From the NCBI RefSeq assembly GCF_001997385.1, contig NZ_CP019633.1, forward strand, positions 990,001-1,022,000: DNA of 32,000 nucleotides, given 5' to 3'. The notes below the pieces were generated by a model. The model saw only the letters and a list, made by a program, of their open reading frames with translations, made no database searches and was not told the DNA's origin. Shown piece after piece: positions 1,469 to 32,000 of this stretch. The stretch comes from Sedimentisphaera cyanobacteriorum. GTDB taxonomy: Bacteria > Planctomycetota > Phycisphaerae > Sedimentisphaerales > Sedimentisphaeraceae. Position 1 is the stretch's first letter; each line of letters starts with the position of its first letter. The position numbers and the translations under genes are program-made.

Positions 1469-2420
1469 CCTCTATGTAAGCTTTTACACCGATGAAGGCG
1501 AGGTAAAGGCTGTTTCAGGCCTTACGCTGGACATAAATGAAGGTGAGACAGTAGCTCTGGTTGGTGAGAGCGGCTGCGGGAAAAGCGTAAGTTCGCTCTC
1601 GGTTTTAGGGCTTCTGCCCAACCCCCCTGCCAAAATCAAGCAGGGCGAGATCCTGTATAAAGGGCAAAATCTTCTCAATCTTGAAGACAAGCAGCTTAGG
1701 ACTCTTCGCGGCAGTGAGATAGCGATGATATTTCAGGAGCCTATGACTAGCCTCAATCCGGTTTATACAATCGGAGATCAGATAATCGAAACAATACTTG
1801 CTCACGAACAAATACCGCTGGAAGAGGCGGAAAAGCGCGCAGCTGAGATGCTCGGGCTCGTAGGAATTCCCGATCCGCTCGCCCGCTTGGATGAGTATCC
1901 CCATCAGCTATCCGGCGGGATGAGGCAGAGGGTAATGATTGCGATGGCCTTGAGCTGCCGCCCTTCTCTGCTCATTGCGGACGAACCGACAACAGCGCTT
2001 GATGTAACTGTGCAGGCTCAGATCCTTGAACTGCTCAAGAGAATTCAAAGCGAAACTAATATGAGCATACTTCTGATAACTCACGACCTCGGCGTGGTTG
2101 CAGAAAACGCCGACAGGGTTGTAGTTATGTATGCTTCGAAGGTGGTTGAGAAGGCGGGCGCGAAGGATATTTTCGATTCGCCCAAACACCCTTACACCAA
2201 AGGGCTGATGCAGTCTTTGCCAAAGCTCGGAGAGAAAAGGGGCAGGCTTGATACAATAAAAGGGGCAGTGCCAGATCCTCTGGAATTCCCTTCAGGGTGC
2301 AAATTTCACCCGAGATGTCCGCTCGGTCATTCAGACCTGCAGTGCATAGAAAATGAGCCCCAGCTTGAACCAGCCGGAGAAGAGAGATTTGTTTCATGCT
2401 GGAAGTGGCAAGATGAGTGA
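1440..2420 (+). CDS. oppD: ABC transporter ATP-binding protein, oligopeptide/dipeptide (OppD/DppD) type
   Basis: ATG at 1440 is in-frame M61 of track ORF 1260-2420; the upstream part is only overlap with the preceding gene. Motifs: Walker [12 protein letters not shown] signature LSGGMRQR, Walker [14 protein letters not shown]-loop ITHDL, and the Opp/Dpp-specific C-terminal extension HPYTKGLM...GCKFHPRCP. Confidence 0.9.
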
Positions 2421-5052: not shown

Positions 5053-6477
5053 ATGCATAGAAGAGAATTTCTCAAATCAACAGCTGCAGCTGTTATCAGC
5101 GGCGCAGCTGCGAAAGGGCTTTTGGCGAAAACGGCAAAAAAGAAACCTAATTTGCTGTTTATCTTTCCAGATCAATTTAGAGTGCACGCACTCGGCTTTA
5201 CCGGCGAGGACCCTACGATTACGCCCAACCTGAACAGATTCTCAAGAGAATCGCTGTTCCTTTATAATGCTGTTAGCAACAGGCCTTTATGCAGCCCTTA
5301 CCGCGGAATGCTGATGACCGGCAAATGGCCATACACTACAGGCATAACCACAAACTGCAATTCCTCACAGCCTGATATCTATCTGCGAAATGATGATATT
5401 ACTTTCACTGATGCTCTCTCTAATGCGGGCTATCATATCGGCTATCTGGGCAAATGGCATCTGGACACACCAAGAGGAGTTCCTGTTGCTGAGCACTGGA
5501 AAAAAGCTCAGTGGGACTGCTACGTACCGCCGAAACGAAGGCACAGCATAGACTACTGGCACGCCTACAACTGCAAAGACCGGCATATGAACCCGCACTA
5601 CTGGATTAAAGATGCAGGTAAAGATGAGAAGACATTCTTCGATCAGTATTCTCCCATACATGAGGCAGAAGTTGCAGAAACATACATAAAAAACGAAGGC
5701 GGAAAGATGAGGGATTCGGACAAACCGTTTGCCTTGTTCGCTGCTATGAATCCGCCTCATCCGCCTTATCACCTCGTGCCTGATAAATACAAACAGCTTT
5801 TCAAAGACAAATCTTTATATAAGCTTATCAACAGACCAAACGCAGACAATCAGCTTGCAGGGAGAATTGCAAAAGATTACTTCGCTCAGGTTGCAGGTGT
5901 GGATGATGCTTTCGGTAAGATAATGGATGCGCTGGAAAAATCCGGCGAGAAAGATAATACAATCGTAGTTTTCACTGCCGACCACGGGGAGATGATGGGC
6001 AGCCACAACCGCAAGGGCAAAGGCGTTATATACGAGGAGTCCTTCAGGGTTCCTCTGGTCGTGCGCTGGCCTGAAAAAATAAAGCCCGGCAGAGACGGAC
6101 TGCATATAAATGTGCCCGATATGATGCCTACCCTCCTCGGACTAATGGGATTAAGCAAATACACCCCAAAACAGGCTGAGGGAAAAGACTATTCGAAAGT
6201 TTTTTCGGGAGAAACGATTGACCGCCCTAATACTTCATTTTTCATCTCCCCCGGAAACGAGGAAATCGGCGCACGCGGAGTTCGCAGCGACAGATACACC
6301 TACGAAGTAAAGCTGAGAAACGGCAAGAAGCAGCTCAGGCTTTACGACAGGAAGACCGACCCGTATCAAATGCGAAACATAGCATACCAAAAGAAAGATG
6401 TGGCAAGCATTATGCAAAAAGAGCTGCAAAAATGGCTTGTAAACACAAATGACCCATACGCAAAATATTATTCCTAA
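5053..6477 (+). CDS. Cys-type (formylglycine-dependent) sulfatase, Tat-exported
   Basis: 474 aa with RBS GAGAGG. Twin-arginine signal MHRREFLKSTAAAV. Active-site C-x-P-x-R motif LCSPYRGMLMTG. GKWHLD and TADHGEMMG motifs fit the alkaline-phosphatase-like sulfatase fold. Confidence 0.92.
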   Translation: MHRREFLKSTAAAVISGAAAKGLLAKTAKKKPNLLFIFPDQFRVHALGFTGEDPTITPNLNRFSRESLFLYNAVSNRPLCSPYRGMLMTGKWPYTTGITTNCNSSQPDIYLRNDDITFTDALSNAGYHIGYLGKWHLDTPRGVPVAEHWKKAQWDCYVPPKRRHSIDYWHAYNCKDRHMNPHYWIKDAGKDEKTFFDQYSPIHEAEVAETYIKNEGGKMRDSDKPFALFAAMNPPHPPYHLVPDKYKQLFKDKSLYKLINRPNADNQLAGRIAKDYFAQVAGVDDAFGKIMDALEKSGEKDNTIVVFTADHGEMMGSHNRKGKGVIYEESFRVPLVVRWPEKIKPGRDGLHINVPDMMPTLLGLMGLSKYTPKQAEGKDYSKVFSGETIDRPNTSFFISPGNEEIGARGVRSDRYTYEVKLRNGKKQLRLYDRKTDPYQMRNIAYQKKDVASIMQKELQKWLVNTNDPYAKYYS

Positions 6478-10774: not shown

Positions 10775-11299
10775 TCAAACAGCAATATCCTCTCTGCGAA
10801 GCTCGATATTCAATCTTCTTCTCAGTTTTTTATGTATTTTCTGAAGCTTATAATGGACGCATCTAATGGAGTTGGAATGTATTTCTGCAAGAGACTTGAG
10901 GGTGAGGCTGTCTTCATAACGCTCGGACAGAAATGTCTTCTCTTCTTTTGATAGCTGATGGAGCTGTTTTTCAAGCACCTCCTCGATCTCATCTTTCTGC
11001 TTTTGGTTGAATCTGTCTGATTGACAGAGCAAAGGCTCAAGGAAATCAGGGGCGTGCGAATGAACTTTGCCGTGCCTTTTTTGCAGATTGTAGTACCGCA
11101 GAATCTGAAGCCTTGCGATAGTAAGAGCCCAAGCCTTAAACTGTTCACTGTCTGGAAATGGCCTGTACTTTTTCCACATTACAAGGCACACCTCCTGCAT
11201 AATGTCTTCTGCGTCATTCTTGTCTGAGACGTGAAATGTTATGTAGCGAAAAATAATCTTATCAATCTTTTGAAACATTCTTACAAAGCTCTTGTCCAT
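10775..11299 (-). CDS. ECF-type RNA polymerase sigma factor (second copy, no cognate anti-sigma downstream)
   Basis: Region 2 motif DAEDIMQEVCLVMW...FKAWALTIARLQILRYY and a C-terminal region-4 HTH (LTLKSLAEIHSNSIRCVHYKLQKIHKKL). ATG at 11299 has AGGA 8 nt upstream; the track start at 11320 is TTG. Confidence 0.85.
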   Translation of the reverse strand: MDKSFVRMFQKIDKIIFRYITFHVSDKNDAEDIMQEVCLVMWKKYRPFPDSEQFKAWALTIARLQILRYYNLQKRHGKVHSHAPDFLEPLLCQSDRFNQKQKDEIEEVLEKQLHQLSKEEKTFLSERYEDSLTLKSLAEIHSNSIRCVHYKLQKIHKKLRRRLNIELRREDIAV

Positions 11300-11350
11300 T
11301 ACAATATCCTCTAAACGCAAACAATCTGTTAAAGATTAATAATTACAAAA

Positions 11351-13063
11351 CTACCGGCCGTCGTTCAGGTTCAAAACAGGCTCCTTGAGTACAGACCAGC
11401 AGTAGTTAATAGTTCGTCTATCAGCAGGTACAGCTGTTATCACAGTTAGGAAATGATCTGAAGGCTTAATAGAGACATCAATATCGCAGGGCTGGTCTTT
11501 TGGTGTCTGGGCCTTCTTCTGAAATTCCTGCTCGCCGTCCAGCAGAACATATATGTCGCAGGATGGAATTTTTATTTCTGAGAAGTTTTTATTTGTTTTT
11601 AGTTTGGAGTTGTCAAATATTGTATCGGAAAGGCCGAACTGGGCTGTAAAGCTGCTGAGAGCCGCATCACCATAAGCCTCTCTGATTCTGCTTAAATCGA
11701 AGGTAATTCCCTGATTTGGATGGATGAAAATACCCTTAGTTTTTGGGAAGCTCAAAATCTCGCCGGCAAGGCTTAGATTATGCTTGAAAACCTCAGGATT
11801 TTCAAAATGAACTGCACCATTAAGAATCCCACCCCAATAACGGCCTGAAGTCTTAAAGAAATCCCTAAAAGTATGTCCTTGCGAAGTAATCTTAACTTCT
11901 CCATCCTCAGCGCCTGGCACAAACACTCCATCAACAAACGGCAAATCCTTTACAGAATTGTATTTATTCGACTTTGATTTCTTCATTAGCATACGAAGTG
12001 TTCTTCTCTGTCCAAAGCGGCCGTTGAGCGAATTAAGCCCAAAGCCCTGCTTACCAGACCCAAGCCCGTTTCCTCCGCCTACAATATCAGCCAAATCAAT
12101 CTGTTTTTCCCCCCGCCAGACTATCTGGGAGTTTTCGTTGAAATGGCGGGCAAACTTATTTTTCTGCAAATCAATTTTTTCAACAGCTAAAGACTCCTGC
12201 GACACCTTGCATGCCATACTTTCAACAACATCGAACGCAGTATTATTCAGCCAGCCCTTGCTGCTTATAAGCCTTGTTTTCCCGCTGAATACGTGGAGCT
12301 GAGAACTGCCCTGCTTATCAGCCGATACGCCGAATTCTGTGCCAAGGTCAACAACTCTTGAATTATCAGTGGAAACCGCAAAGCCCACACCTTCCACCGG
12401 GACTTTTGAATAAAGGCTTCCGTAATCAAGGTTAACCTCTGAAATGCTGGAAAAACGGAATTCAGCAGGTCCTTCGACCACCAGCTTCACGCCCCTGTCG
12501 GTTTTGAATTCAGCAAGGCCTTTTTTAAGCTGAATATTCTCTAAGCCGGTATAAACTGAATCCTGTTTTTTGAAAGACTGCCTACCCCATTCAGCCTTAT
12601 AGGTGTCAGTAATAGTTGCAGCCCTTTTCATTTCAGGCACAAACAAATTCGCATATATCAGCAGAAAAATTATTGCTGCCGCAGATACAGCACCTGAAAC
12701 AACTGTAATCCAGCTGATGTTTCTCGGCTGTTTCTGCACCGAAGAGGGATAGTTCTTTTCTTTCAGCTCAGCTGCCTTAGGCTTCTTTTCTCTGCGGGAA
12801 ACAGCGGGTGCATATTTTTCATACCAAGCAAGCTCTGCGAGCACGTTGAGACAGTTCTCCTGTGAGAAGCTGTCATGCTCGCCTACATTACCTCCGATAG
12901 AATTAAGCGAGCTGCAAACCTGAATGTATTCTCTGTAAAAGTCTCTTGCCTGCTTTTCCGAGGCAAGGATTTCATTCAGCCGGTCTCTGTGCTGCTCGGT
13001 AAGCATACCGTTTATTGAACTTTCGATAAGGAGGCTGAGCTCTTTGAACTTTTGCTGGTTCAT
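11351..13063 (-). CDS. FecR-family transmembrane anti-sigma factor with large extracytoplasmic C-terminal domain
   Basis: N-terminal anti-sigma helix region, one TM helix (ISWITVVSGAVSAAAIIFLLIYANLF), then a FecR-like beta domain (GLAEFKTDRGVKLVVEGPAEF...VDLGTEFGV), then ~250 aa of uncharacterised beta-rich sequence. ATG at 13063 lies 1 nt after the upstream sigma stop, with GAGAGGG ~10 nt upstream. Confidence 0.85.
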   Translation of the reverse strand: MNQQKFKELSLLIESSINGMLTEQHRDRLNEILASEKQARDFYREYIQVCSSLNSIGGNVGEHDSFSQENCLNVLAELAWYEKYAPAVSRREKKPKAAELKEKNYPSSVQKQPRNISWITVVSGAVSAAAIIFLLIYANLFVPEMKRAATITDTYKAEWGRQSFKKQDSVYTGLENIQLKKGLAEFKTDRGVKLVVEGPAEFRFSSISEVNLDYGSLYSKVPVEGVGFAVSTDNSRVVDLGTEFGVSADKQGSSQLHVFSGKTRLISSKGWLNNTAFDVVESMACKVSQESLAVEKIDLQKNKFARHFNENSQIVWRGEKQIDLADIVGGGNGLGSGKQGFGLNSLNGRFGQRRTLRMLMKKSKSNKYNSVKDLPFVDGVFVPGAEDGEVKITSQGHTFRDFFKTSGRYWGGILNGAVHFENPEVFKHNLSLAGEILSFPKTKGIFIHPNQGITFDLSRIREAYGDAALSSFTAQFGLSDTIFDNSKLKTNKNFSEIKIPSCDIYVLLDGEQEFQKKAQTPKDQPCDIDVSIKPSDHFLTVITAVPADRRTINYCWSVLKEPVLNLNDGR

Positions 13064-13064
13064 A

Positions 13065-13589
13065 CTAATAACCCTCTCTTTCAAGGGTGTTTCTAACGCA
13101 CTTTATCAGATTGAAGTGAATTCTGGAGAAGCTCCTGAAAATAGACTGAATAGACCGCCCTGTTTTTTCGGCAATTTCGCGGAGTTTCATACCTTCGAAA
13201 TAACGCATATCAATAAGGCGACAGTCTTTGGCATTCTGCTTTGACACGCAGGACTTTAATGCTTCAATTTTTTTATCAAGTTCATTCTGCTGTTCTTGAG
13301 CCTCTTCTGCGAGCAGTTCGAATACCTCGGTTGTAAAGACAGACTTGCGTCTCTTCTTTCGGTAGTATTTCAGACATTCATATTTTGCAATTTGGGCAGC
13401 CCAAGAAACGAAATCGGAATCAGGTCTGAAACTGTCGAATTTCTGAAGCATTATTACTGAGGTGTCCTGCATAATATCATCTGCATCCGCCTTGTTGGGA
13501 ACAAGGGTAAAGATAAAATTGTAGATGCGGGGATAGTGCGCAGTTAGAAGATTTGTAAACTCTTTAGTTTTTGAAGATTTATTACTCAT
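13065..13589 (-). CDS. ECF-type RNA polymerase sigma factor (cognate of the FecR anti-sigma)
   Basis: Region 2 DADDIMQDTSVIMLQKF...FVSWAAQIAKYECLKYYRKK and region 4 MKLREIAEKTGRSIQSIFRSFSRIHFNL. Directly precedes the anti-sigma gene. Confidence 0.88.
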   Translation of the reverse strand: MSNKSSKTKEFTNLLTAHYPRIYNFIFTLVPNKADADDIMQDTSVIMLQKFDSFRPDSDFVSWAAQIAKYECLKYYRKKRRKSVFTTEVFELLAEEAQEQQNELDKKIEALKSCVSKQNAKDCRLIDMRYFEGMKLREIAEKTGRSIQSIFRSFSRIHFNLIKCVRNTLEREGY

Positions 13590-13764: not shown

Positions 13765-15342
13765 TTATTCCTGCTTGACAACAAAGGCCGACACGGATTT
13801 TGACGGAAGTTCAAGAGTCAAAGTTCTGCCTCTGACTTTTTCAGCCTCGAGGGGGGAAGGCTTAACATTTTCGGGACTTCTGAAAGTGTTGCAGGAGTTG
13901 ATCTTATCTGCTGTTAGGGTTCTGCCGGAAACATCAGAAATATCACCGCCCTCAATTTCAATGGAGACCTTCTCTTCAGAATTATGGTTAAGGTTGCAGA
14001 CTGTGATATAGATCCCGTCCTCCGTTTTTGAAGCCGACACATTCAATGCCGGCAGTTTTTTTCCGTCAAGCCCATAAGCACTGGTTTGCAGTCTGGTATC
14101 CATAAGCTCACCACCCTGATGGTGTTTGAACATTTCAAACACGTGATAAGTTGGCGTAAGAATCATCTGCTCGCCCTTTGTAAGTATCATAGCCTGAAGC
14201 ACATTGACAGTTTGGGCAATATTTGCCATTTTAACCCTTTCGCAATGTCTGTTGAATTCATTCAGAAATATCCCTGCGGAAACAGCATCCCTAACAGTAT
14301 TCTGCTGATACAGGAAGCCGGGCTTTGAGCCGGGCTGACGATTCCACCAAGCGCCCCACTCATCGACATAAAGCTCGACCTTGTTGTCGGGGTCGTATTT
14401 ATCCATAATCTTGATATGAGCAGCAAGGAGATCTCTAACCTTCAAGGCATTGTCCATCAATGTGAACCAGTCATTTTCGCCGAATTCGGTAGCGCTGCCT
14501 TTATCGCCCCAGCCGCCGGTCATAATGTAGTAATGGAGGCTTATCGCATCCATCTTACCGCGGCAGTTTCTCATTAACACTTCCATCCAGCGAGTGTCCC
14601 AGCTGTTCGGGCCGCAGGCAATTTTTTTAACCCGGCTGCCCGGGTAATTCTTAACATAAGTCTGGTAGCGTTTGTAAACATCTGAGTAGTACTCCGGAGT
14701 CATATTTCCGCCGCAGCCCCAGTTTTCATTACCCACGCCGAAATACTTCACGTCCCAGGGCTCTTTCCTGCCGTTTTGCCGGCGGAGGTTAGCCATCTCG
14801 CTCTTGCCAGCAAACGTGAGATACTCCACCCAGTCCATCATCTCTTCAGGTGTTCCCGAACCAACGTTACCTGCAATATACGCCTCACAGTCCAGCAGTT
14901 CGCACAGACGCATAAATTCGTGAGTGCCGAAGGAGTTGTCTTCTGTTACCATCCCCCAATGGGTGTTTACAATCTCCGGCCTCTGGTCTTTGGGGCCAAT
15001 GCCGTCTTTCCAGTGATACTCGTCCGCAAAGCAGCCTCCCGGCCAGCGGAGCACAGGAATATTGAGCTGCCTGAGAGCTTCAAGCACATCCTTGGGGATA
15101 CCTTTAACGTTCGGGATATCCGATTCTTCTCCAACCCATATCCCCCCGTATATACATCTGCCGAGATGTTCGGCGAAATGCCCGTAGATCTCTGGAGCGA
15201 TCACAAGAGGTTTGCTCATCTCGGAAATGGTTAATTTATTCACATCAGAATCATCCATTACAACCGTTTCGGATATCCCTGCCGAGGCGGAGAAAAGCAG
15301 GAAAGCAGTAATGCAAATTGCAGCATTTTTGAATATTCTCAT
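13765..15342 (-). CDS. abfA: alpha-L-arabinofuranosidase, glycoside hydrolase family 51, secreted
   Basis: Signal peptide MRIFKNAAICITAFLLFSASAG and RBS GGAG. GH51 hallmarks: YGHFAEHLGRCIYGGIW, RWPGGCFADEYHWKDGIGP, GNENWG (acid/base Glu), VDEWGAW (nucleophile Glu). Confidence 0.9.
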   Translation of the reverse strand: MRIFKNAAICITAFLLFSASAGISETVVMDDSDVNKLTISEMSKPLVIAPEIYGHFAEHLGRCIYGGIWVGEESDIPNVKGIPKDVLEALRQLNIPVLRWPGGCFADEYHWKDGIGPKDQRPEIVNTHWGMVTEDNSFGTHEFMRLCELLDCEAYIAGNVGSGTPEEMMDWVEYLTFAGKSEMANLRRQNGRKEPWDVKYFGVGNENWGCGGNMTPEYYSDVYKRYQTYVKNYPGSRVKKIACGPNSWDTRWMEVLMRNCRGKMDAISLHYYIMTGGWGDKGSATEFGENDWFTLMDNALKVRDLLAAHIKIMDKYDPDNKVELYVDEWGAWWNRQPGSKPGFLYQQNTVRDAVSAGIFLNEFNRHCERVKMANIAQTVNVLQAMILTKGEQMILTPTYHVFEMFKHHQGGELMDTRLQTSAYGLDGKKLPALNVSASKTEDGIYITVCNLNHNSEEKVSIEIEGGDISDVSGRTLTADKINSCNTFRSPENVKPSPLEAEKVRGRTLTLELPSKSVSAFVVKQE

Positions 15343-15429: not shown

Positions 15430-15458
15430 AAAGGTTTTATTAGCTTTTAATGAACGGC

Positions 15459-16310
15459 CTACCACCAGAACCATACACCGCCTGTAGTAAGCTTGTGCTT
15501 TATATTTTCAAATTCGCCTGCATCAGTGTACTGGCCAGTATCCAGCCAGCTTACGTGGCCGTCAACATAGCCGATATTAGCGCCGTCCGGAGCGGGCTCA
15601 CCGCTTCTGCCAACATTTTGATTCTTTGATCTATGGTTAGACCTGTCAACTACACCGAACTCATTATAAGCTCCGCCGGCCTGAATCCGGAAGAAATTAG
15701 TGCCGCTGTTGTCGCTGATTATATTATCCATAATCATCGGAGTGTCGCTGGTTTCATCAACGCCTTCCAAACTTTTCACCCAGCTTGCAGATTTTCCTGT
15801 TTCAAGCTCTCTTGGAGTCATCGTTGGATTTTTGTAGAACATATAGGTGTACGGCATAACGCGATAATGCTGTTTCTGCACCTCTTCAGTCATTTTTGAC
15901 TCATCCTGAATGGGCACTGGCCCTGCGGCTGCATCGGTAGGCCAGCCGCTTCTCCAAGTAAACTGCCAGAAGCGTGCATCATCCGGCTCCCGCAGATTGT
16001 TTGAAGGGCAGAAAAATACCTCATTGTCTGTAAAGCCGGCATATTCTGCAATCTGGTTTGTAGTCCAGAAGCTCAGATCCCAGAGCCAATTGCCCTGGCC
16101 GGCGTAGTCTTCTGCGATTGTTGGAACTTTGTAATTATTCTCAGTTGCATACATATTAACGCCAACACACTGCTGCCTGACATTATTACTGCACACAGTT
16201 TTCTTTGCCGCCTCTCTTGCTTTTGAAAGCGCAGGCATCAAAACAGCCATCAAAAGAGCAATGATTGAGATAACCACCAAGAGCTCAATGAGTGTAAATG
16301 CTTTTTTCAT
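15459..16310 (-). CDS. prepilin-type N-terminal cleavage/methylation domain protein (DUF1559-family pseudopilin)
   Basis: N-terminus [28 protein letters not shown] is a class-III signal with Glu at +5. The C-terminal box [11 protein letters not shown] is typical of the DUF1559 / H-X9-DG family that is hugely expanded in PVC bacteria. RBS GAGG. Confidence 0.88.
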
Positions 16311-22087: not shown

Positions 22088-22091
22088 AAAA

Positions 22092-23420: not shown

Positions 23421-23451
23421 TCAATGATTTTGGGGAAACTAAAAAAATATA

Positions 23452-24795
23452 TCAGGCTAATCGAGTCTTTAATTTGCTTTTCATTGCCAAATTTCTGTAA
23501 AATTCAATAATTTTAAGCATAAAAATATAGGCAAAAGTAAACTTCTTTAGAAGTTTACGCATATTGTACCCAAAAGCGCTGCCGAGGGCGTTCATTTTGT
23601 CCCCTTCTACACCTTTCAAGAAGTTTCTTCCCAACCTGTTGTCTTCTTTGAGGTGGCCTATCGTTGGTTCTATGCTCGATCTTCTCTTAATCCACCTCTT
23701 GATACTTCGTTTCTTTTTTCGCCAGCCCTTTTCTACAATTTCAACATTTCCAATATCTTCGCAGCCATGTTTCTTGTATCCTCCATCAACATAAACATCT
23801 CCAAGCTTTTCTCTCCCGATTAAATTCATTGTCTGCTTCAGATTAGCCCGAAGAGTATGGCCATCATAAGGGTTTCCTTCAAAGCCCAACGCTCCTACGA
23901 TAAAATTATTCTTGGCAGTAGTTACAATTCCAACCTTATTTCCAAACTCATATTTCTTGTGGCTTTTGCCTTTCCCAATGCAGCAGACGTGAGGTTCGTG
24001 AATACTGTAGAGCTTATTTTTGCTTTTCTTTGTCTGGGCTAAAAGCTTCTTAGCGGCTTGAAGCAATGTATCAAAAATTATTCTTAACTGCTCATTGCCT
24101 GCTATATTCCGCTCGACCTCTTTCGTAATTCGCCGCAGGTAGTTCCTTAATTTCTTCACTTCTTTTTTAGCTCTTTTGAACTGTTTTGCACGTCGATACC
24201 TGCCCTGCATTACATACGCCCTTTTTCCAACCCTTTCGTAGCTTTGGCGAAGTTGGAGTTTTGAGGCTTTTGCAAGATCTACAAGCTTAATGCGCAGTTT
24301 GTGGCAGAGTTTTGCGTCGGTCGGATAAGTGATGTTCTTCTGCTGAACGGTTGTATCTGCAACGAGCTTGTTGAAATCGTTCTTTTTGATAACCTTAAGC
24401 TTCAAGCCGGCTTTGATAGTTTCTTCGAGCAGCTCTTCAAGACCATCAGATTTTACCTTATTACGCCACTTAGTCATACTGGTTGGATCAATAGGAGGCT
24501 CGTACTGGAAGTATCTTTCGCCGCAGAAATACTGCCAGTAAGGATTCTCAACCCAGCCGGCAACGATTGCTTCATCGCTGAGATTGAAAGTGTACTTGAG
24601 ATACTGAAGGCCGACCATCAGGCGAATCGGCTTGGCCGGCCTGCCTGAATCAGGACTGTATAAACTGCCAAACTTCTCTTCAAAGCGAGACCAGTTGACA
24701 ACCTCTGAGAGTTGGACTAAAGAGTGATCAGGATTTACAAGAGGTTTTAATGGCTGCTGAAAGAGTAAGCCTGCTTTATTGTTTTTTGCCTTCAT
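23452..24795 (-). CDS. IS5-family DDE transposase (InsH/DUF772-type N-terminal domain)
   Basis: 447 aa from ATG 24795; the track start at 24816 is TTG. N-terminal RPAKPIRLMVGLQYLKYTFNLSDE. DDE region with VADTTVQ, VYVDGGYK, RSSIEPTIGHLKEDNRLGRNFLKG. Confidence 0.9.
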   Translation of the reverse strand: MKAKNNKAGLLFQQPLKPLVNPDHSLVQLSEVVNWSRFEEKFGSLYSPDSGRPAKPIRLMVGLQYLKYTFNLSDEAIVAGWVENPYWQYFCGERYFQYEPPIDPTSMTKWRNKVKSDGLEELLEETIKAGLKLKVIKKNDFNKLVADTTVQQKNITYPTDAKLCHKLRIKLVDLAKASKLQLRQSYERVGKRAYVMQGRYRRAKQFKRAKKEVKKLRNYLRRITKEVERNIAGNEQLRIIFDTLLQAAKKLLAQTKKSKNKLYSIHEPHVCCIGKGKSHKKYEFGNKVGIVTTAKNNFIVGALGFEGNPYDGHTLRANLKQTMNLIGREKLGDVYVDGGYKKHGCEDIGNVEIVEKGWRKKKRSIKRWIKRRSSIEPTIGHLKEDNRLGRNFLKGVEGDKMNALGSAFGYNMRKLLKKFTFAYIFMLKIIEFYRNLAMKSKLKTRLA

Positions 24796-24922
24796 TATTT
24801 TGTCCCAATATTGCAATGTTTTGATAGATGTAAGATAAACACTTGCAATATTATACCATATCTCGAAAGCTTTTCAATCATATAAACCATTATCAGGAAA
24901 GAATTTAAGGAAAATTTTAAAC

Positions 24923-24937
24923 TTTTTCAGGGGCGAC
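24923..24937. repeat. IS5-type terminal inverted repeat, right
   Basis: TTTTTCAGGGGCGAC, the reverse complement of GTCGCCCCTGAAAAA. Confidence 0.7.
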
Positions 24938-24943
24938 TAATAA
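24938..24943. repeat. candidate target-site duplication, right copy (TAATAA)
   Basis: Identical to 23400-23405 and directly abuts the right IR. Confidence 0.6.
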
Positions 24944-25421: not shown

Positions 25422-28400
25422 TTATTCAGCTGTTATTTCAGAATAGGGATTACTGCTTTTCAGCCACTGCGAACAAAATGAACGCAAATTCTGGAGTGAA
25501 TAATCCCACTCTGAAATAAAGAGGGCGTAGTCCTCAATATCAACGAAGCAGTCCTGATTAAGATCTGAATCGTGATATCCCCAAGCCCCGCACTGATAAT
25601 GCAAAAACTCTGATGGCTTAAGGGCCTTGCTGGAGAATTTTATATCATCTATAAACCCGCTTACATGGTCAACTTGGGAGCCATCGAACCAGCCCCGGCC
25701 TACTGTCCAATTGTGCCCTGCTGCTGAGAGGGAATTGTCGCTGCCGGGATTTAAAGATAAAGTGCCTGCAAGCTGTGAGCCGTTTCCGTCGAGCTTATCT
25801 GCATAAAGCTTCAGGGTGCTGCCGTCTGAAACGGCTGCAATGCAGTACCATTTTCCTGCCTGAGCAGCAAAATCAGAATCCAACACATAGCGATGCCCGC
25901 CGGCGGTATCGAAGTTCACACGGAATTTGTTGTCGATGCCGTTTTTCTGTAGATAAAAATCAGACTCAGCCTCTCCATGGGATGAGCCGTCTTTGCCTAT
26001 AAAGGTCTGCCAGCCGCTGATACTGTCAAGCTTCACAGCGCACTCAACAGTCCACTGCTCAGGAGCCCAGTTGTTTATGCCTGCATTATTCGTGTAGGCG
26101 TCCTGACCGCCATTCAACCTGCAGCTGAGACCGAGCCCGCTGGGAGTCTGGCCTGTCTGTGAGAATGATGGGCCGTAAGTATCGTCCCAAGCATACAGTT
26201 CATAGCCGTTACCAGACAAATCGGCCGCGCAGGGCTGTCCGGTTTGGCCGGTATTATTCATTGCAGCTCCGGGAGTACCTCCATCGAAATTCCAATGCGC
26301 TGCAACATAAGTATCCAGCTCTACATCAGTTCTTACTGTTGCAAAATCTTTAGCTCCAGCTGAGTCTTCTACTGAAAAAATAAAATAATTCATTCCGGCA
26401 TTTGAACTTTCAGGACTGCCGGAAGCCTGGCCTTGAGAGTTAATGCTGAGCCATTGAGGGCCTGAAATCTTATGGAAAATCAGATTATCGCCGCTGTCGT
26501 TTTGCGAGACATAAGCTGAAAGGTCAAAAGAAAAATTCTCATCAACAAAACAGCTTCCCATATCAATTTCCTTAAGATTGAATTGAGGAGGGCTGTTGCT
26601 CATAAGTTTTTCAATTTCCACTGCTGAAAAAGCGGCATCTGAAATTATCACATCATCAAGGATGCCGGAAAAGAGAGGGTCTGCTGAGAAATTGCTCTTT
26701 CCGAGATAATTTTTCGAAGCAGAGATGTCCGAGGGATTCAATGTTATACTCTCACTGGCCTCAAGGCTGCCGTTGATGTAAAGCCTGCCGGTATCGTCAT
26801 CCAATACAACTGCAACATGCGTCCACTCATTTACAGGAAAAGCTCCTGATTCGAGTCTCTTTTCGCCGTTATATCCAGACTGGGTAATCGAGAAGCGCAT
26901 CTGACTGCTGTAGGTAGAAGGTGTTATAAACATATAATTATCTGTATTATTGCCGAAATCAAAAATCCTCTGCCACTTCTCACCTCCGTCCCAGTAAACC
27001 CATGCGGCAAAAGTGAAATCATCACTGCCGGCTATATTCTCCGGAAGAACGAGGTAATCATCTTTGCCGTCTAAAGCGAGGCAGTCTGCAAAACTTTCGG
27101 TTTCAAGGGCGGGCGCTCCGTAAACTAGCGGATTATTCCCTTCCCCGGAGCTGTCAAGAAAGCTGCCGCTGAAGTAATAGGCAGCTCGTGAAGGCTTCTG
27201 GAAATCAGGTGTCTGCTGCTGAAAGCCCACTTTCGATTTTCTGTTTTTGTAAACCTCGCCGGCAGGTGTGAGCGAGCCGTCATCCCTCTGAACCCTTCTC
27301 ACATCTTCCACCCAATTGTATATGGCGTATCTCTCCACCCATGGAGTGTTCTCCATCATATCAATCATAGCAGATATCGCATCTGCCTGCTGCTGGTATG
27401 TGGGGTCTGGGCAGTCTGTCCAGTTTGCGCCGTTATTCCATTCAGTTACCCATATCGGTCGTCCTGTCTGGTCGTGAATATTCTTCATGTAGTTGTACAT
27501 CTTCTCAGCAGCGCCCGCCGGGTCCTGCGGATTTCGACAGCGGTAGTAATGCACTGCCACAAAATCCACCCTGAGGTTTTCCGAGTCAGCCTGCTGCATA
27601 AAAGGCACAAGCCATGAATTCACTCCTCCATCTGTAACTGCAGGTGAACCAACTCGCAGACCGGTTGAGAGCAGATCAGGCCAAGACCATATCGCATCCC
27701 CCACTGCAATATCGCTCTGCGAAGAGCTGTCCGGTTCGTTATATCCGAGCAGATGCGAAGAGCCTCTGGATTGCCAGTCCTGCCCCAAGCCCGGCCACCA
27801 GCGGTTCTGCCGAATCGGTACATACTCCTTATCGAGCGTAGAAGTTTCGCTTATGTTCCAGTTGTAAGACCAACCAATATCCAAATTACTTCCAATTCCG
27901 CCTGCGATACCTTTTTTCGGCGTCCATCGCCATGGGAAGATTCGCGCAAAATTCACATTCCCGTCCAGCTCGGGCGGAAGAGAGCCTATAAGCAGATCGC
28001 AGTCTTGAGCAACGTAGTTTTTACTGAAGCCGCTGCCGTCTTCGTTCTGTGCTAATGTGACAGTGTAGCCTCTTTTGAGAATGAACGAACTTGCCTGAGA
28101 CGAAAGCTGCCCCAGAGAGCCTGAATTATAATTAACGTATTGGGCAAGCTCAGCAGACCTGCCGAGAAAGTTCTCCTCTGCGAAAAGCTCCAAAGGCTTG
28201 AACCCCTGAGAATGGGGTATTATAACAGCCCCTGATTCATACTGAACCACCCGCACATTTTCATTCAATACAGCATCCTCACCTGAAACTTTTATCTGAG
28301 AGAGGTAAGCTGAATCCGAGGCCTGCGAAGGCTTGATCCCTTCAAGAAAAACAAACGCGTCCTCCGAATTCAGATTAATTTGGCAGTTTGAAAGCACAGA

Positions 28401-30401
28401 CGAACCGCCTGTTAGATGGAGCTCTGAGAGGCAGGAGAGATTTACTGTTTCATCAGAAAGACTTGGAAAAGTGAGTATGTCGTTTTCAATAGTAATCTGA
28501 TCGGCCTGAGAAGCTGCATCAACAATCTGGATATTCGGCTTTGGAGGGTCTGTCATACCTTCGCCGAGATAATAATCCAGCTGATGAGACTGCATATAAC
28601 CCTTTACTGTCATACTGTTTCTGTACGCAGGATTGTGCGGGAGAGTGTATAGGCGTTTGTCTGTTTGGATATCTGTTGTAAAAATAACCAGCTCTGTGTA
28701 GTCTGGGTTTGTCATTATAGCCTCTTCACGCCAGTCGCCCCAAATATCACCATAAAACATTGGAGCTCCCCTGTAGCTGTGGGTTGCTCCGTGGTAATGC
28801 CAAGTAGTAACAATTCGAGACATCCAGCTGTTATTGCAGTCCCACTGTTCGATTTTGCCGTCATTGAAGTTCTCACTTAGAAGATCCCCATCCCACCAAA
28901 GCCTAAGGCATGGCCATGGCTGTTCTCCGGGAGATGTAATTTGCTGCCCGGTTGGCCCGTTCCAAACTCCGCTGAATGCCCACACCTCATAGCCCGGGCT
29001 GCGAGGGTCTATATCAGCCGCCTCCCCTCGGCCTACATCCCCCGGGGATTCGGAATGCTGCCATAAAATTTCTCCATTGCTCGGGTCGAAGTAGAAAAAC
29101 TGCAGACCGCTTGGATTGTCCTGCTGGACGGCATACCCGTTTAATCCGCTGGATGTCGGATCAAATTTGCCAATGTGAAATCTGTCTCCATGCACTACGC
29201 CCGAATCATGGAGGTCGTATAAAAGTGTACCGTCGCTTTCCAGTCCAAAACCGAGATGGAAAAATTCATCCTCACCATCCTGATCTGCATCCACTATCCG
29301 AATATTATGGCTGTCAGGACATACCCCGCCATAACCTCCATCAGGGCCTCTGAGCCATTTCCATTTTTGTTCAAGATTTTCGCCATCGAAATCCCAAGCG
29401 CAAACCATCATATTAAATTCACCGTCTCCAATGCGGTTTTTCATTGATGCAATAAGGCTGGGATTTATCCCGTCCAAATAACCAACGCCAAAATGGGCAG
29501 GCATCGGGCCGTCTGAGATGTAATCTGTTGGAATCTGTATGCGTGCCTCTTCTGAGCCCGTTTCTCCGTCGAGTATTGAAATGAACTGAAGATTATCATT
29601 AGAGGCTGATAAAGTTTCACCGTCCCCGAAAGTTACCCCGTTCGCAGTGCGCAGAGCAACTTCAGATTTGCCGTCACTATCCAAATCATAAACCGTAACT
29701 CCGTCCCAATGGCCTACATCAACAGCTGAAGAGCCCGGTTCAATATTATAGGTGTTTGTGCTGTTTGACCCTAAATCTGCGCTCCAGAGCAGCGTTCCAT
29801 CCTGCCTGTAAGCCTCAAGCTTCTGAGAGCGTCCTTCATTGTTGAGACGGTCAAGAACGAAATCGTATTCTCCGTCTCCATCGAGGTCTCCAACCCATAC
29901 AAAGTGAATTTTGTCGGTATTACCGCTGCTGAGCGGTACTACTATGCAAGGCTCCTCAAGAGCGCCCGATTCAATAGTGAATGGCTTGCTCTTCTGCTTT
30001 TCCTGCCCGTTTATTACAGTCTTAACATAATAGCTGTTGTCTTTCTGGGCATCAGCATCTGTATCAGTATAGCAGGTTGCGCCGGTTAGGACGGAAGAAT
30101 TCAGCTTAACTGCCTCGCTCCCGTCAGCCGAACGATAGATATTAAACCCGATATCGACAGGGTCAACACCCAAAAGGCGCCAGCTTATGAAAACACCGCC
30201 GCTTGTTCTTACTGCTGCTACTCCCCTGCCGAGATTCTCCATTTTGCGTTTTGGAGTAACAGAATGCTTTTCCGTGAAGCCAGATTTTTCTGTTTCCGCC
30301 TGAGCAATTCCTGCTGAACAGGCTGGCAGAAGGGGGATTCTGTGCATAACTGCCAGCGTAATCGCTGAAACGGCAAACAGCACAAAGAAAGCATACTTCA
30401 C
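25422..30401 (-). CDS. giant secreted multimodular polysaccharide-active protein: divergent PL11-like beta-propeller + beta-rich linker + GH clan-A 'Glyco_hydro_cc' (GH128-like) core + LamG + cadherin/Ig-like + LamG + dockerin-like repeat
   Basis: Start reassigned to GTG 30401, 8 nt downstream of GGAGG (30414-30410); the track start at 30416 is the TTG inside that RBS. The N-terminus is a hydrophobic signal with a possible lipobox-like LLPAC. Residue numbers follow the ORF track.
- aa ~59-625: YesW-like N-domain ENLGRGVAAVRTSGGVFISWRLLG plus propeller motifs VYDLDSDGKSE, YLDGINPS, GDIWGDWREE, VIFTT, RLYTLPHNPAYR.
- aa ~828-1058: WSYNW, LLGYNEPD, WVTEWN.
- aa ~1080-1272 and ~1370-1603: LamG/ConA-like (FTFAAWVYWDG...RIFDFG...WTHVAVV..LYINGSL; WTVECAVKLD...KWYCIAAVSDGSTLKLYAD).
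- aa ~1276-1365: Ig/cadherin-like.
- aa ~1615-1645: DLNQDCFVDIEDYALF. Confidence 0.85.
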   Translation of the reverse strand: MKYAFFVLFAVSAITLAVMHRIPLLPACSAGIAQAETEKSGFTEKHSVTPKRKMENLGRGVAAVRTSGGVFISWRLLGVDPVDIGFNIYRSADGSEAVKLNSSVLTGATCYTDTDADAQKDNSYYVKTVINGQEKQKSKPFTIESGALEEPCIVVPLSSGNTDKIHFVWVGDLDGDGEYDFVLDRLNNEGRSQKLEAYRQDGTLLWSADLGSNSTNTYNIEPGSSAVDVGHWDGVTVYDLDSDGKSEVALRTANGVTFGDGETLSASNDNLQFISILDGETGSEEARIQIPTDYISDGPMPAHFGVGYLDGINPSLIASMKNRIGDGEFNMMVCAWDFDGENLEQKWKWLRGPDGGYGGVCPDSHNIRIVDADQDGEDEFFHLGFGLESDGTLLYDLHDSGVVHGDRFHIGKFDPTSSGLNGYAVQQDNPSGLQFFYFDPSNGEILWQHSESPGDVGRGEAADIDPRSPGYEVWAFSGVWNGPTGQQITSPGEQPWPCLRLWWDGDLLSENFNDGKIEQWDCNNSWMSRIVTTWHYHGATHSYRGAPMFYGDIWGDWREEAIMTNPDYTELVIFTTDIQTDKRLYTLPHNPAYRNSMTVKGYMQSHQLDYYLGEGMTDPPKPNIQIVDAASQADQITIENDILTFPSLSDETVNLSCLSELHLTGGSSVLSNCQINLNSEDAFVFLEGIKPSQASDSAYLSQIKVSGEDAVLNENVRVVQYESGAVIIPHSQGFKPLELFAEENFLGRSAELAQYVNYNSGSLGQLSSQASSFILKRGYTVTLAQNEDGSGFSKNYVAQDCDLLIGSLPPELDGNVNFARIFPWRWTPKKGIAGGIGSNLDIGWSYNWNISETSTLDKEYVPIRQNRWWPGLGQDWQSRGSSHLLGYNEPDSSSQSDIAVGDAIWSWPDLLSTGLRVGSPAVTDGGVNSWLVPFMQQADSENLRVDFVAVHYYRCRNPQDPAGAAEKMYNYMKNIHDQTGRPIWVTEWNNGANWTDCPDPTYQQQADAISAMIDMMENTPWVERYAIYNWVEDVRRVQRDDGSLTPAGEVYKNRKSKVGFQQQTPDFQKPSRAAYYFSGSFLDSSGEGNNPLVYGAPALETESFADCLALDGKDDYLVLPENIAGSDDFTFAAWVYWDGGEKWQRIFDFGNNTDNYMFITPSTYSSQMRFSITQSGYNGEKRLESGAFPVNEWTHVAVVLDDDTGRLYINGSLEASESITLNPSDISASKNYLGKSNFSADPLFSGILDDVIISDAAFSAVEIEKLMSNSPPQFNLKEIDMGSCFVDENFSFDLSAYVSQNDSGDNLIFHKISGPQWLSINSQGQASGSPESSNAGMNYFIFSVEDSAGAKDFATVRTDVELDTYVAAHWNFDGGTPGAAMNNTGQTGQPCAADLSGNGYELYAWDDTYGPSFSQTGQTPSGLGLSCRLNGGQDAYTNNAGINNWAPEQWTVECAVKLDSISGWQTFIGKDGSSHGEAESDFYLQKNGIDNKFRVNFDTAGGHRYVLDSDFAAQAGKWYCIAAVSDGSTLKLYADKLDGNGSQLAGTLSLNPGSDNSLSAAGHNWTVGRGWFDGSQVDHVSGFIDDIKFSSKALKPSEFLHYQCGAWGYHDSDLNQDCFVDIEDYALFISEWDYSLQNLRSFCSQWLKSSNPYSEITAE

Positions 30402-30496
30402 AAGTTTTACCTCCAATTATTTATCGCTAATAACATTGCCTTTACGATCTTTAAGGCTCACAATTATTAAACCATTCCGCAATGAAAACCTTTGTT

Positions 30497-32000
30497 TCAG
30501 CTGGATAGTCCATTTTCCGTTTCAAGCCATTTTTCAATTAGAACGTTTAAGTCTAAAAGGTTTACAGCGCCGTCTCCGCCTGCAGGGGCAATATCAGCTT
30601 GAGGCTCTGCAAGATGCTTCATCCACTCACTGGATAACACAGCATAGTCTTTCAGCTCTATTCTGCCGTCTGGAAGAATATCAGCAGGATTGAATCTTGG
30701 AGTTATCAGCGATATATCCGGCTGCTCGGGAGGAGTCATCCCCAACCCTATATAAAAGCTTGGATGCGGGGGCTGATTGTAGCCGACATTCTGCCAAGCA
30801 ACAGCCAATCGGTACTGCGGATCGTGCATAAGTGTGTAAATACGATGAGTTGTCTTGTCTGTGGTAGTGAAGATCCTGAGCTTCTCGTTGTCGGAAGCAC
30901 GATAAATCATTTCCTCCCGCCAGTCTCCGAGGATATCTGCTGTAAGGCAGGGATTTGCCTTGGTGTAGTTGTTGGAGTTTGTACTGTATGAATCAGGAAT
31001 GCTGTAAATACTCATCAGCCTGTAAACGCTGTCAGCCTGACTGTCCCACTTATCCATAATCGGATTCATTCCCTGCCCGTCTGCTGCGTCGAGCATTTCG
31101 CGCTGCAGATCAGATGTCCACCATATTGCGAAATTCAAACTAGGCATAGAGCTGCTCATTTGAGACCCGTCAACGTTGTAAGTACCGCCGGCAGCAAAAG
31201 ACCAGAGCTGATAACCGATTTCCCGATTGTCTATATTGGCTGCAAGCGCCCTGCCTACATCGCCTGTATTGGGGTGTTCCCAGATAATCTCGCCCGTTTC
31301 AGCATCACGGTACGAAGCGCCTGAGGCGGATGTCTCATGGCACTGCCAAACTTCAAGCCCAGGGCGGTAAGGATCCATATCTGAAACATGCAGTGCGTCT
31401 CCATGGCCTAAGCCGGTGGAGTAAAGGCCGGTTCCGTCATCATCAATCGTGCAGGAACCGAAAATGATCTCATCTCTTTTATCGCTGTCAACATCTGCAA
31501 TGCTGAGGGTGTGGCAGCCTTGGCCTGCATATGCGGAATTGCCCGGGTCGTCGCTATCGAAAATCCATCTCAAAGACAGCTCGCCTCCGCGCCAGTCCCA
31601 AGCAGCCAAAACGGTTTTCTCGTAATAGCCTCGAGTCATAATAACGCTTGGCCTCTCCCCGTCCAGATAAGCCACTCCCGCAAGGAAACGGTCAACACGG
31701 TTGCCGTAAGAATCCCCCCAGTCTGAAACATTGCCTCTTGCAGGTTCGAAAGCCTCAGAAGCAAGGGCTGCTCCCGTCTGCCCGTCGAATACCGTGAGAT
31801 ATTCCGGGCCGGTTAGAATCCTGCCGGCAGAATTGCGGTAGTCCGCTGACGGATCTCCGATAGTGTTTCCCTGCCCGTCTTCTGCGCCGTCTGATGTTCT
31901 GCAAACCATTTCTGAATAGCCGTCGCAGTCTAAGTCGTACACCATAAACTGGGTATAATGGGCTCCTGCACGAATATTTCTGCCCAGATCTACCCTCCAC
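30497..32000 (-). CDS. rhamnogalacturonan lyase, polysaccharide lyase family 11 (YesW/YesX type) with C-terminal dockerin-like domain; 5' end beyond window
   Basis: The frame stays open upstream of the track ATG (31945) to the window edge (..WRVDLGRNIRAGAHYTQFMVYDLDCDG..). Canonical PL11 blocks: DYRNSAGRILTGPEYLTVFDG, WGDSYGNRVDRFLAGVAYLDGERPS, GHGDALHVSDMDP, GDWREEMIY, RIFTTT, RIYTLMHDPQYR. The last ~64 aa carry two Ca-loop-like repeats, DILPDGRIELKDYAVL and DIAPAGGDGAVNLLDLNVL. Confidence 0.88.
   Translation of the reverse strand, partial: WRVDLGRNIRAGAHYTQFMVYDLDCDGYSEMVCRTSDGAEDGQGNTIGDPSADYRNSAGRILTGPEYLTVFDGQTGAALASEAFEPARGNVSDWGDSYGNRVDRFLAGVAYLDGERPSVIMTRGYYEKTVLAAWDWRGGELSLRWIFDSDDPGNSAYAGQGCHTLSIADVDSDKRDEIIFGSCTIDDDGTGLYSTGLGHGDALHVSDMDPYRPGLEVWQCHETSASGASYRDAETGEIIWEHPNTGDVGRALAANIDNREIGYQLWSFAAGGTYNVDGSQMSSSMPSLNFAIWWTSDLQREMLDAADGQGMNPIMDKWDSQADSVYRLMSIYSIPDSYSTNSNNYTKANPCLTADILGDWREEMIYRASDNEKLRIFTTTDKTTHRIYTLMHDPQYRLAVAWQNVGYNQPPHPSFYIGLGMTPPEQPDISLITPRFNPADILPDGRIELKDYAVLSSEWMKHLAEPQADIAPAGGDGAVNLLDLNVLIEKWLETENGLSS

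Follow-up and report, generated by a model that had tools for sequence, protein, structure and literature searches.

A genus-restricted Sedimentisphaera protein that joins a divergent PL11-type propeller to a GH128-like glycanase unit

Does a protein that carries a lyase scaffold and a retaining-hydrolase scaffold on one chain act as a single two-headed enzyme, and if so, on which polymer? The question is raised by a gene of Sedimentisphaera cyanobacteriorum (Planctomycetota, Phycisphaerae) that lies in a stretch of 32,000 nucleotides of contig NZ_CP019633.1 (positions 990,001 to 1,022,000), referred to here as the window. A preliminary description of the window had proposed a single open reading frame (ORF) of about 1660 residues containing a polysaccharide lyase family 11 (PL11)-like propeller, a glycoside hydrolase (GH) core and a series of accessory modules. 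The ORF proves to be a complete coding sequence for 1659 residues (Table 1), and the modules and their order agree with the matches found in Pfam, among Protein Data Bank (PDB) entries and by fold comparison. Those above curated Pfam cut-offs are RGI_lyase, RGL11_C, Glyco_hydro_cc, Laminin_G_3, He_PIG and a second Laminin_G_3. The reading that we lean towards, with modest confidence, is that the product is a secreted two-headed enzyme maintained in Sedimentisphaera, in which a PL11-clade lyase for a rhamnogalacturonan I (RG-I)-like uronate backbone would be combined with a retaining GH128-like β-glycanase.

The first half of the protein had been described as a YesW-type N-terminal domain followed by a β-propeller, and the Pfam matches to RGI_lyase and RGL11_C support this. 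A PDB sequence search matched YesW (2z8r) at E 5e-82 over residues 52-625. The propeller is about 30% identical to characterised PL11 enzymes and 38.7% identical to the product of a canonical PL11 gene that lies directly upstream, and its RGL11_C score is much lower than that of this neighbour (255 versus 628 bits). The propeller was also said to lack blocks conserved in this neighbour, among them DYRN...; this is correct, as DYRN... and WGDSYGNRVDRFLAG of YesW are missing from the propeller and kept in the neighbouring PL11 gene. In the alignment with YesW, the loops carrying DYRN... and WGDSYGNRVDRF are deleted from the fusion propeller.

To place individual residues, the printed PDB alignment was matched to the YesW residues named in PMC8787155, and His363, His399, Asp401, Glu422, Arg452, Lys535 and Tyr595 all landed on the expected letters. 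Conservation was read from an alignment of 181 sequences, comprising 178 near-full-length members of the propeller's clade together with YesW, 4CAG and the neighbouring PL11; residues of the fusion protein are counted from the GTG at 30401. PMC8787155, citing Ochiai 2007, names His363, His399, Asp401 and Glu422 as the active-site metal ligands of YesW. The first three correspond to H365, H404 and D406 of the fusion, each present in 178/178 clade members, and the carboxylate-stabilising Arg452 and the stacking Tyr595 correspond to R458 (177/178) and Y602 (178/178). All five residues are common to YesW, 4CAG and the neighbouring PL11. The set of metal ligands is incomplete, since Glu422 is replaced by Q427, a Gln in 177/178 of the clade. 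Other positions have also acquired residues typical of the clade: Ala402 is replaced by R407 (Arg in 177/178), and His421 and Ser366 are replaced by Q426 and R368 (Gln and Arg, respectively, in at least 95% of members). The position of Lys535, which like Arg452 stabilises the carboxylate in YesW, assigned from an ungapped alignment anchored on P+3, D+8 and GDWREE, is R544, and it is Arg in only 119/178. Ochiai et al. reportedly found in 2009 that Asn152 and Asp172 of YesW bind substrate. These residues and Asp153 are not kept, the corresponding positions being H166, L186 and F167, and the first two positions are variable across the 178-member clade.

As judged from this alignment, the differences mark a clade that is large and strongly conserved, and they are not idiosyncratic decay. 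A catalytic role for the propeller is likely, and its chemistry or specificity may differ from that of canonical PL11 enzymes. The loss of the acidic metal ligand, together with the two new Arg residues beside the metal site, could reflect an altered metal dependence. In Bacteroidota, genes of the propeller clade lie near PF07470, a GH78-type rhamnosidase, GH43, GH2, a PL9-like β-helix and SusC/D; PF07470 is a Pfam family of unsaturated uronyl hydrolases that takes in GH88 as well as the rhamnogalacturonyl hydrolases of GH105. These neighbours modestly support an RG-I-like, rhamnose- and uronate-containing substrate for the clade. Bo4416 of B. ovatus is a divergent PL11 described in PMC8787155; the Glu and Lys residues and the 60-residue Lys-Tyr spacing reported for it do not fit the clade.

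The hydrolase half contains a GH128-like (β/α)8 barrel, as the motifs LLGYNEPD and WVTEWN had suggested. The Glyco_hydro_cc match itself spans residues 838-1051, and the barrel matched 6UAQ at E 2e-23 to 2e-24 in the PDB sequence search. In a Foldseek comparison against the PDB, GH128 subgroups I-VII take ranks 1-28, the best match being AmGH128_I (6uas; target-normalised TM-score, TMt, 0.78; E 2e-14). AmGH128_I is also the nearest characterised member, at 26-28% identity. LLGYNEPD and WVTEWN align without gaps to its FNEPD and WLTEY, and PDB entries 6UAT, 6UAS and 6UFL are its E102A, E199A and E199Q mutants. In this clan GH-A family the acid/base Glu lies in NEP on strand 4 and the nucleophile Glu in TE on strand 7. 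The pair of catalytic Glu residues expected from the motifs is intact on this alignment, with E889 as the predicted acid/base and E987 as the predicted nucleophile. In a 50-sequence family alignment, numbered on the 441-residue unit described next, N254, E255, H317 and Y319 do not vary, and at least 90% of the sequences have E353.

The region before the barrel had been taken for a β-rich linker of about 190 residues. It consists instead of two folded domains that are conserved with the barrel. A protein search with residues 635-1075, which cover this supposed linker and the GH core, gave 493 proteins; for the best 120 of these, query coverage is 76-100% (92-100% in most) and identity 50-66%. 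Homologues with 52-59% identity span 94-100% of the 441-residue unit. Because homologues cover nearly the whole query, the 195 residues before the barrel are a fixed part of the GH family. When searched alone, this 195-residue module was found just with PF11790 or as gene fragments. According to these searches, the β domain, the crystallin domain and the barrel thus form an obligate unit, and the family that carries it is widespread in the PVC group (Planctomycetota, Verrucomicrobiota and relatives). In a species-representative genome collection, the unit is encoded by at least 575 stretches. The tails of other GH-unit proteins are non-catalytic (LamG, He_PIG, PATR, F5/8-C), and among the tails found, neither the unit nor its N-terminal module had another catalytic partner.

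An AlphaFold model of the unit (residues 635-1075) has a predicted local distance difference test score (pLDDT) of 92 and a predicted TM-score of 0.90. The first domain, of about 98 residues, has no PDB match by Foldseek and no Pfam hit even at E<=10; as modelled, it may represent a so far undescribed domain with an accessory or binding role in the GH128-like family of the PVC group. The second domain includes the stretch that had been called crystallin-like, and it has a genuine βγ-crystallin fold, the double Greek key of about 90 residues. Foldseek matched its AlphaFold2 model (pLDDT 92-96) to Protein S 1NPS (E 5.5e-6, TMt 0.85, root-mean-square deviation 1.9 Å), 3HZB, 3SO0 and 2kp5, with TMt of 0.80-0.85 against 1nps, 3hzb and 3so0, and there is no Pfam hit to this domain at E<=10. 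Microbial βγ-crystallins bind Ca through the motif N/D-N/D-x-x-S/T-S. The corresponding stretch here reads S-S-Q-A-S-S, and the acidic/amide pair is absent.

The pairing of the two halves is confined to one genus. In an exhaustive phmmer search (HMMER) of 1.84 billion representative proteins, which stand for 15 billion, with residues 1-1075 as query, exactly one cluster had both halves: that of Sedimentisphaera, which matches as one stretch over 1-1075 with 2101 bits. The next best scores are at most 890 bits and cover either 47-635 or 630-1075 alone. In all, 3647 representative proteins match one half or the other at E<=1e-10. Fusions between more divergent PL11 and GH128 proteins may exist, as their scores would fall below those listed. 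The earlier remark that lyase and hydrolase scaffolds are uncommon in one chain therefore stands for this pairing, which is found in Sedimentisphaera only, but not for PL11 proteins with several catalytic modules, which are not unusual. CE12–(CBM35)–PL11_1 fusions occur in Bacillus relatives (PMC10483417), and GH43–dockerin–PL11-like and SGNH-esterase–PL11-like fusions occur inside the propeller clade itself (P0108, P0089, P0113). The fusion is a variety of the familiar multi-catalytic modular carbohydrate-active enzymes, not a new type of system. Databases already contain the protein, with a name that covers only part of it: AQQ08984.1 / WP_123785127.1 / A0A1Q2HNY5 of S. cyanobacteriorum is 100% identical and is called "Rhamnogalacturonan endolyase YesW precursor" or "LamG-like jellyroll fold domain-containing protein".

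Comparison by BLASTP resolves the protein into segments with different relatives. Residues 43-649 are 65-67% identical to PL11-like proteins. Residues 633-1361 are 46% identical to residues 40-766 of the 768-residue standalone protein P0127, a match that comprises the entire mature protein (β domain, crystallin, barrel, LamG and He_PIG) and remains collinear at the He_PIG end up to the C-terminus of P0127. Residues 1367-1628 are 44% identical to the LamG and dockerin tail of the PL11-like protein P0003 (residues 672-926). At the 632/633 junction, the C-terminus of the propeller is joined directly to the mature N-terminus of the GH cassette. The composition of the cassette is common elsewhere: of 79 genome loci, 71 have LamG, often followed by He_PIG, directly after the GH unit. 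Most of the 79 carry the unit at the N-terminus, and a median of 34 residues precedes it. The closest relatives of both propeller and cassette belong to Anaerohalosphaeraceae and other Sedimentisphaerales. The simplest history suggested by these alignments is an in-frame insertion of a whole GH cassette into a PL11-like–LamG–dockerin protein. This would have taken place in the Sedimentisphaera lineage, the cassette entering without its signal peptide between the propeller and the LamG-dockerin tail.

The same fusion is present in a second species. The ortholog of S. salicampi (NHPQ01000041.1), which comes from an independent assembly and ends at a contig end, aligns collinearly and without a gap across 1483 codons, with 79% identity. 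Relative to this ortholog, the ratio of non-synonymous to synonymous substitution rates (dN/dS), measured at dS of about 0.8-1.6, is 0.052 for the propeller, 0.071 for the N-terminal domains of the GH unit, 0.078 for the GH barrel, 0.083 for the second LamG domain, 0.125 for the first LamG domain and 0.351 for He_PIG. All parts of the fusion are kept under purifying selection.

In the two-headed reading, the protein would be secreted and is probably associated with the cell surface. Head 1 (residues 52-622) would cleave a 4-linked uronate-containing backbone by β-elimination, most likely one resembling RG-I. The work would be done by the His365/His404/Asp406 site together with Arg458 and Tyr602, with a remodelled arrangement for charge neutralisation and for the base, in which Gln427 stands for Glu, Arg407 and Arg368 are new, and Arg544 stands for Lys. 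Head 2 (residues 635-1064) would act as a GH128-like retaining β-glycanase, with Glu889 as acid/base and Glu987 as nucleophile. Its substrate would be a β-linked neutral glycan, by analogy β-1,3-linked, sitting in or alongside the polymer cut by head 1. The two LamG domains, He_PIG and the crystallin domain may serve as binding or spacer modules, and the degenerate dockerin-like tail would be a leftover of an anchoring or assembly module found in relatives. A literature search found no characterised member of either clade and no PL11 subfamily assignment, and these functional statements therefore rest on analogy. The data do show the domain layout, the insertion, the retained catalytic residues, the selection and the rarity of the pairing, whereas the activities, the substrates, any synergy and the location of the protein are inferred.

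Several observations weigh against this interpretation. Identity to characterised enzymes is only about 30% for PL11 and 26-28% for GH128. In the propeller clade, the Ca ligand Glu422 of YesW is Gln in all but one of the 178 members, the substrate-contacting Asn152, Asp153 and Asp172 are replaced, and the Lys535 position is Arg in just 119; chemistry or substrate may therefore differ from RG-I lysis. The GH128 subgroups have been defined structurally and functionally, and all are β-1,3-glucan-active or -binding (PDB entry descriptions; PMC10956234). β-1,3-Glucan is not a component of RG-I, and there is no single known polymer that would account for both heads. In 79 other genomes, no PL11-like gene lies closer than 10 kb to the GH unit, and beyond the gene itself no gene cluster recurs in more than 6 of these loci; there is thus no independent sign of a functional link outside Sedimentisphaera. 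Within the window, the neighbours xylA, xylB-like, GH3 and GH51 point to the use of xylose and arabinose, not to the catabolism of uronate or rhamnose, and an insertion sequence (IS) separates these genes from the fusion gene. The preliminary description had also offered a sulfated algal polysaccharide as a substrate, and nothing in the analysis points specifically there.

An alternative that we regard as unlikely but serious is that the propeller is not a rhamnogalacturonan lyase. Its 'QQ/HGDR' clade would then be a functionally distinct PL11 offshoot, with lyase activity on another uronate polymer or with another metal dependence, or a non-catalytic binding propeller. The fusion protein would accordingly amount to a GH128-like hydrolase to which a large targeting domain is attached, or to a lyase/hydrolase whose substrate is not pectic, for example an exopolysaccharide of cyanobacterial mats. 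Such an offshoot is consistent with the clade-wide changes of Glu422 and His421 to Gln and of Ala402 and Ser366 to Arg, the loss of Asn152, Asp153 and Asp172, the variable Lys535 position, the two deleted loops and the low Pfam score. It also agrees with the host's family, which comprises strictly fermentative polysaccharide degraders of anoxic habitats (PMC11266412), and with the canonical PL11 already next door, which makes redundancy of two PL11 genes unlikely. However, the His/His/Asp set and Tyr602 in every one of the 178 members, Arg458 in all but one, and a dN/dS of 0.05 are typical of a catalytic site, not of a lectin. Moreover, members of the clade are fused to, or lie beside, enzymes of pectin type, namely an SGNH esterase, GH43, PF07470, a rhamnosidase and a PL9-like protein.

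A bolder possibility, which we put forward tentatively and consider doubtful, is that the fusion reports a functional link of two uncharacterised families on a heteropolysaccharide new to both, for example a cyanobacterial-mat exopolysaccharide. One polymer would then contain a uronate-deoxyhexose backbone and β-linked neutral branches. The PL11 offshoot could have a Ca-independent mechanism or a new lyase specificity, and the crystallin-bearing GH128-like family may have a specificity other than β-1,3-glucan.

It is rather improbable, in our estimation, that both heads are active on unrelated substrates, namely a pectic or uronate polymer and a laminarin- or curdlan-like β-1,3-glucan, with a fusion that is neutral or that serves mere co-expression or co-export without synergy. 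That all defined GH128 subgroups act on or bind β-1,3-glucan would fit this explanation, as would a GH cassette that is self-sufficient elsewhere and has no PL11-like gene nearby in the 79 genomes; a fusion in one genus only is also expected of a recent harmless accident. Yet the fusion has outlived a dS above 1 with no loss, indels or relaxed constraint in either half. In addition, the cassette lies inside the host protein, between its catalytic and its binding or anchoring parts, and therefore shares the host's LamG and anchoring tail instead of being joined end to end. An artefactual ORF, arising by misassembly of repeats (a worry raised at the outset), by read-through after a sequencing error or by decay of a pseudogene, is most improbable, and its misassembly and pseudogene forms are excluded for practical purposes, because an IS element about 480 bp 3' of the stop codon and a degenerate dockerin-like tail are outweighed by the independent S. 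salicampi assembly with the same gapless fusion and a dN/dS of about 0.1, by the lack of tandem or direct DNA repeats and of in-frame stops inside the ORF, and by a junction that runs from the propeller's C-terminus straight into the mature N-terminus of the cassette. A secreted two-headed enzyme thus remains the reading we prefer, and the features on which it is built are collected in Table 1.

Table 1. Features of the fusion gene and of neighbouring genes (positions are those of the window; aa, residues of the fusion protein)
Feature	Position	Strand	Details
Complete coding sequence, 1659 aa + stop	25422..30401	(-)	GTG start at 30401
Probable Sec signal peptide, aa 1 to ~35	30297..30401	(-)	MKYAFFVLFAVSAITLAV...AQA with E after cleavage; hydrophobic N-terminus; cleavage site uncertain
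PL11 N-terminal β-sheet domain, RGI_lyase, aa 52-141	29979..30248	(-)	82.9 bits, cut-off 27.8; aligns with YesW from residue 40
Divergent PL11-type β-propeller, RGL11_C, aa 170-622	28536..29894	(-)	255 bits, cut-off 27
Propeller key residues			H365, H404, D406, R407, Q427, R458, R544, Y602
Small β-rich first domain of GH cassette, aa 635-732	28206..28499	(-)	pLDDT >94; conserved with barrel in homologues
βγ-crystallin domain, ~aa 733-825	27927..28205	(-)	contains SSFILKRGY; boundaries approximate
GH128-like (β/α)8 barrel, Glyco_hydro_cc, ~aa 830-1064	27210..27914	(-)	PF11790 126.9 bits, cut-off 21; E 1e-36
Predicted acid/base E889	27735-27737	(-)	aligns with E102 of AmGH128_I
Predicted nucleophile E987	27441-27443	(-)	aligns with E199 of AmGH128_I
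LamG / concanavalin-like domain 1, Laminin_G_3, aa 1111-1263	26613..27071	(-)	PDB 4QVS E 4e-28; inside inserted cassette
He_PIG Ig-like domain, aa 1287-1359	26325..26543	(-)	27.7 bits, cut-off 24; end of inserted cassette
LamG domain 2, Laminin_G_3, ~aa 1434-1598	25608..26102	(-)	55.3 bits alone; homologous to PL11-like tail
Degenerate dockerin-like remnant, aa 1611-1647	25461..25571	(-)	first Ca-loop-like segment + last helix
Canonical PL11 gene, directly upstream	30497..32000	(-)	RGL11_C 628 bits; runs off window
Insertion sequence, ~1.54 kb	23402-24941		19-nt imperfect terminal inverted repeats
IS transposase, DUF772 + DDE_Tnp_1	23452..24816	(-)	
Xylose isomerase + xylulokinase-like FGGY kinase + regulator block	19343-23402		

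The coding sequence lies within one unbroken ORF on the minus strand that spans 25422..30416. GTG 30401 is the likely start codon, because GGAGG at 30410-30414 lies 8 nt 5' of it and the alternative start TTG 30416 overlaps this Shine-Dalgarno sequence. A signal peptide is probable, as predicted from the hydrophobic N-terminus. A lipoprotein signal was considered and not adopted, the candidate 'LPAC' with Cys28 being atypical and not conserved in the S. salicampi ortholog. Promoter and terminator scans gave results at chance level.

The two LamG domains and the cadherin/Ig-like module of the preliminary description correspond to two matches to Laminin_G_3 (PF13385), with 140.9 bits for both copies combined, and to He_PIG. 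The single dockerin-like Ca loop at the C-terminus had been accurately described, as one loop and a helix are present, but it is a remnant only. In an alignment of the last 50 or so residues with the tails of the neighbouring PL11, P0003, P0004, P0011 and P0013, which have two dockerin-like repeats, the fusion protein lacks the second Ca loop, and Pfam Dockerin_1 (PF00404) gives no hit in this tail even at E<=10.

The neighbouring PL11 keeps the residues equivalent to E422 and K535 of YesW and has a complete two-loop dockerin-like tail. The possibility that this gene is 5'-truncated (the listed ORF starts at 31945) was rejected; because its frame is open to the window edge, it merely runs off the window. 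The gene upstream of the S. salicampi ortholog (contig NHPQ01000041.1, L004:1-731) ends with Laminin_G_3, whereas the upstream PL11 of S. cyanobacteriorum ends with a short dockerin-like tail, so the neighbourhood differs between the two species.

On the other side of the fusion gene, the IS element borders on the end of xylA (23402) on one side and on the fusion gene's 3' flank on the other, and because it is wedged there it may have disrupted an older gene arrangement. The genes beyond it serve the use of hemicellulose or side-chain sugars. In NCBIfam, the xylose isomerase matches TIGR02630 with 706 bits and the FGGY kinase is xylulokinase-like with 306 bits, below the equivalog cut-off of 380.25. 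The regulator of this block combines a periplasmic-binding-protein domain with an AraC helix-turn-helix. These genes are easily mistaken for rhamnose genes from Pfam alone. An assignment of the isomerase and kinase to rhamnose catabolism was tried and rejected on the NCBIfam matches, and the argument for RG-I that it would have provided was dropped.

Further along the window, two extracytoplasmic function sigma factor genes (10775..11320 and 13065..13589), a gene for a 577-residue FecR-like anti-sigma protein whose C-terminal region is weakly NPCBM-like (11351..13084), a GH51 gene (13765..15342) and a gene for a 283-residue protein with an N-terminal prepilin-type methylation motif (15459..16310) form an arrangement typical of PVC-group regulation of carbohydrate-active enzymes (10775-16310). 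A second transposase gene (DUF4372 + DDE_Tnp_1; 3659-4882, minus strand) adjoins a sulfatase gene (5053..6477). At the start of the window, an ORF for a helical, acidic protein of 487 residues (5-1468, plus strand), with no Pfam match, overlaps the start of an ABC ATPase ORF (1260..2420) by about 200 nt, and one of the two starts is therefore probably wrong.

Multi-headed carbohydrate-active enzymes hint at which bonds co-occur in a substrate. Since both heads of the fusion protein come from populous clades that have no characterised member, its characterisation could assign activities to both. The protein provides a test case for whether the Glu→Gln and Ala→Arg remodelling shifts the metal dependence of PL11, and it could clarify the targets of crystallin–GH128-like proteins in Verrucomicrobiota and Planctomycetota. 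Its value thus lies in opening the way to two large clades of orphans and to the question of a remodelled PL11 active site. If the two families are functionally linked on a polymer new to both, this would establish one or more new enzyme specificities and offer a lead to the substrates of thousands of orphan sequences; if the heads are an ordinary RG lyase and an ordinary β-1,3-glucanase, the protein would be merely a lineage-specific gene fusion.

Among known systems, the lyase head is closest to YesW and YesX of Bacillus subtilis and RGL11 of B. licheniformis (CAZy PL11; 2Z8R, 2ZUY, 4CAG), which share its N-terminal β-sheet domain and propeller. The fusion keeps His363, His399, Asp401, Arg452 and Tyr595 of YesW. 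It differs in the low identity of its propeller (about 30%), the deletion of the DYRN and WGDSYGNRVDRFLAG loops, the changes Glu422→Gln, Lys535→Arg and Ala402→Arg, and the replacement of Asn152, Asp153 and Asp172. It also falls in a clade apart, which numbers at least 178 sequences and has invariant residues of its own, and its propeller is embedded in a multi-domain protein of 1659 residues.

The hydrolase head resembles AmGH128_I, an endo-β-1,3-glucanase of Amycolatopsis mediterranei (GH128 subgroup I, 6UAQ), in its barrel, in the Glu residues of the NEP and TE(W/Y) motifs and in the H-x-Y motif. In contrast to that enzyme, the barrel of the fusion (26-28% identical) is preceded by a β domain and a βγ-crystallin domain and followed by LamG and He_PIG. 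This arrangement is shared with standalone crystallin–GH128-like–LamG(–He_PIG) proteins of the PVC group (Planctomycetota, Verrucomicrobiota, Kiritimatiellota), which are collinear with residues 633-1361 in the same order at 46-68% identity. Examples are P0127 from a metagenome-assembled genome (MAG) of Pontiella, P0194 of Luteolibacter luteus and the Anaerohalosphaeraceae MAG loci L005-L015. Unlike the fusion, these proteins have their own signal peptide and no lyase domain, and they are uncharacterised. Other multi-catalytic PL11 proteins, with CE12, GH43 or SGNH-esterase modules, likewise tether a PL11-type lyase to a second catalytic module. Their partners are esterases or GH43 enzymes with an obvious role on pectin side chains or acetyl groups, whereas the partner in the fusion is a GH128-like barrel without a known link to pectin, in a pairing unique to one genus.

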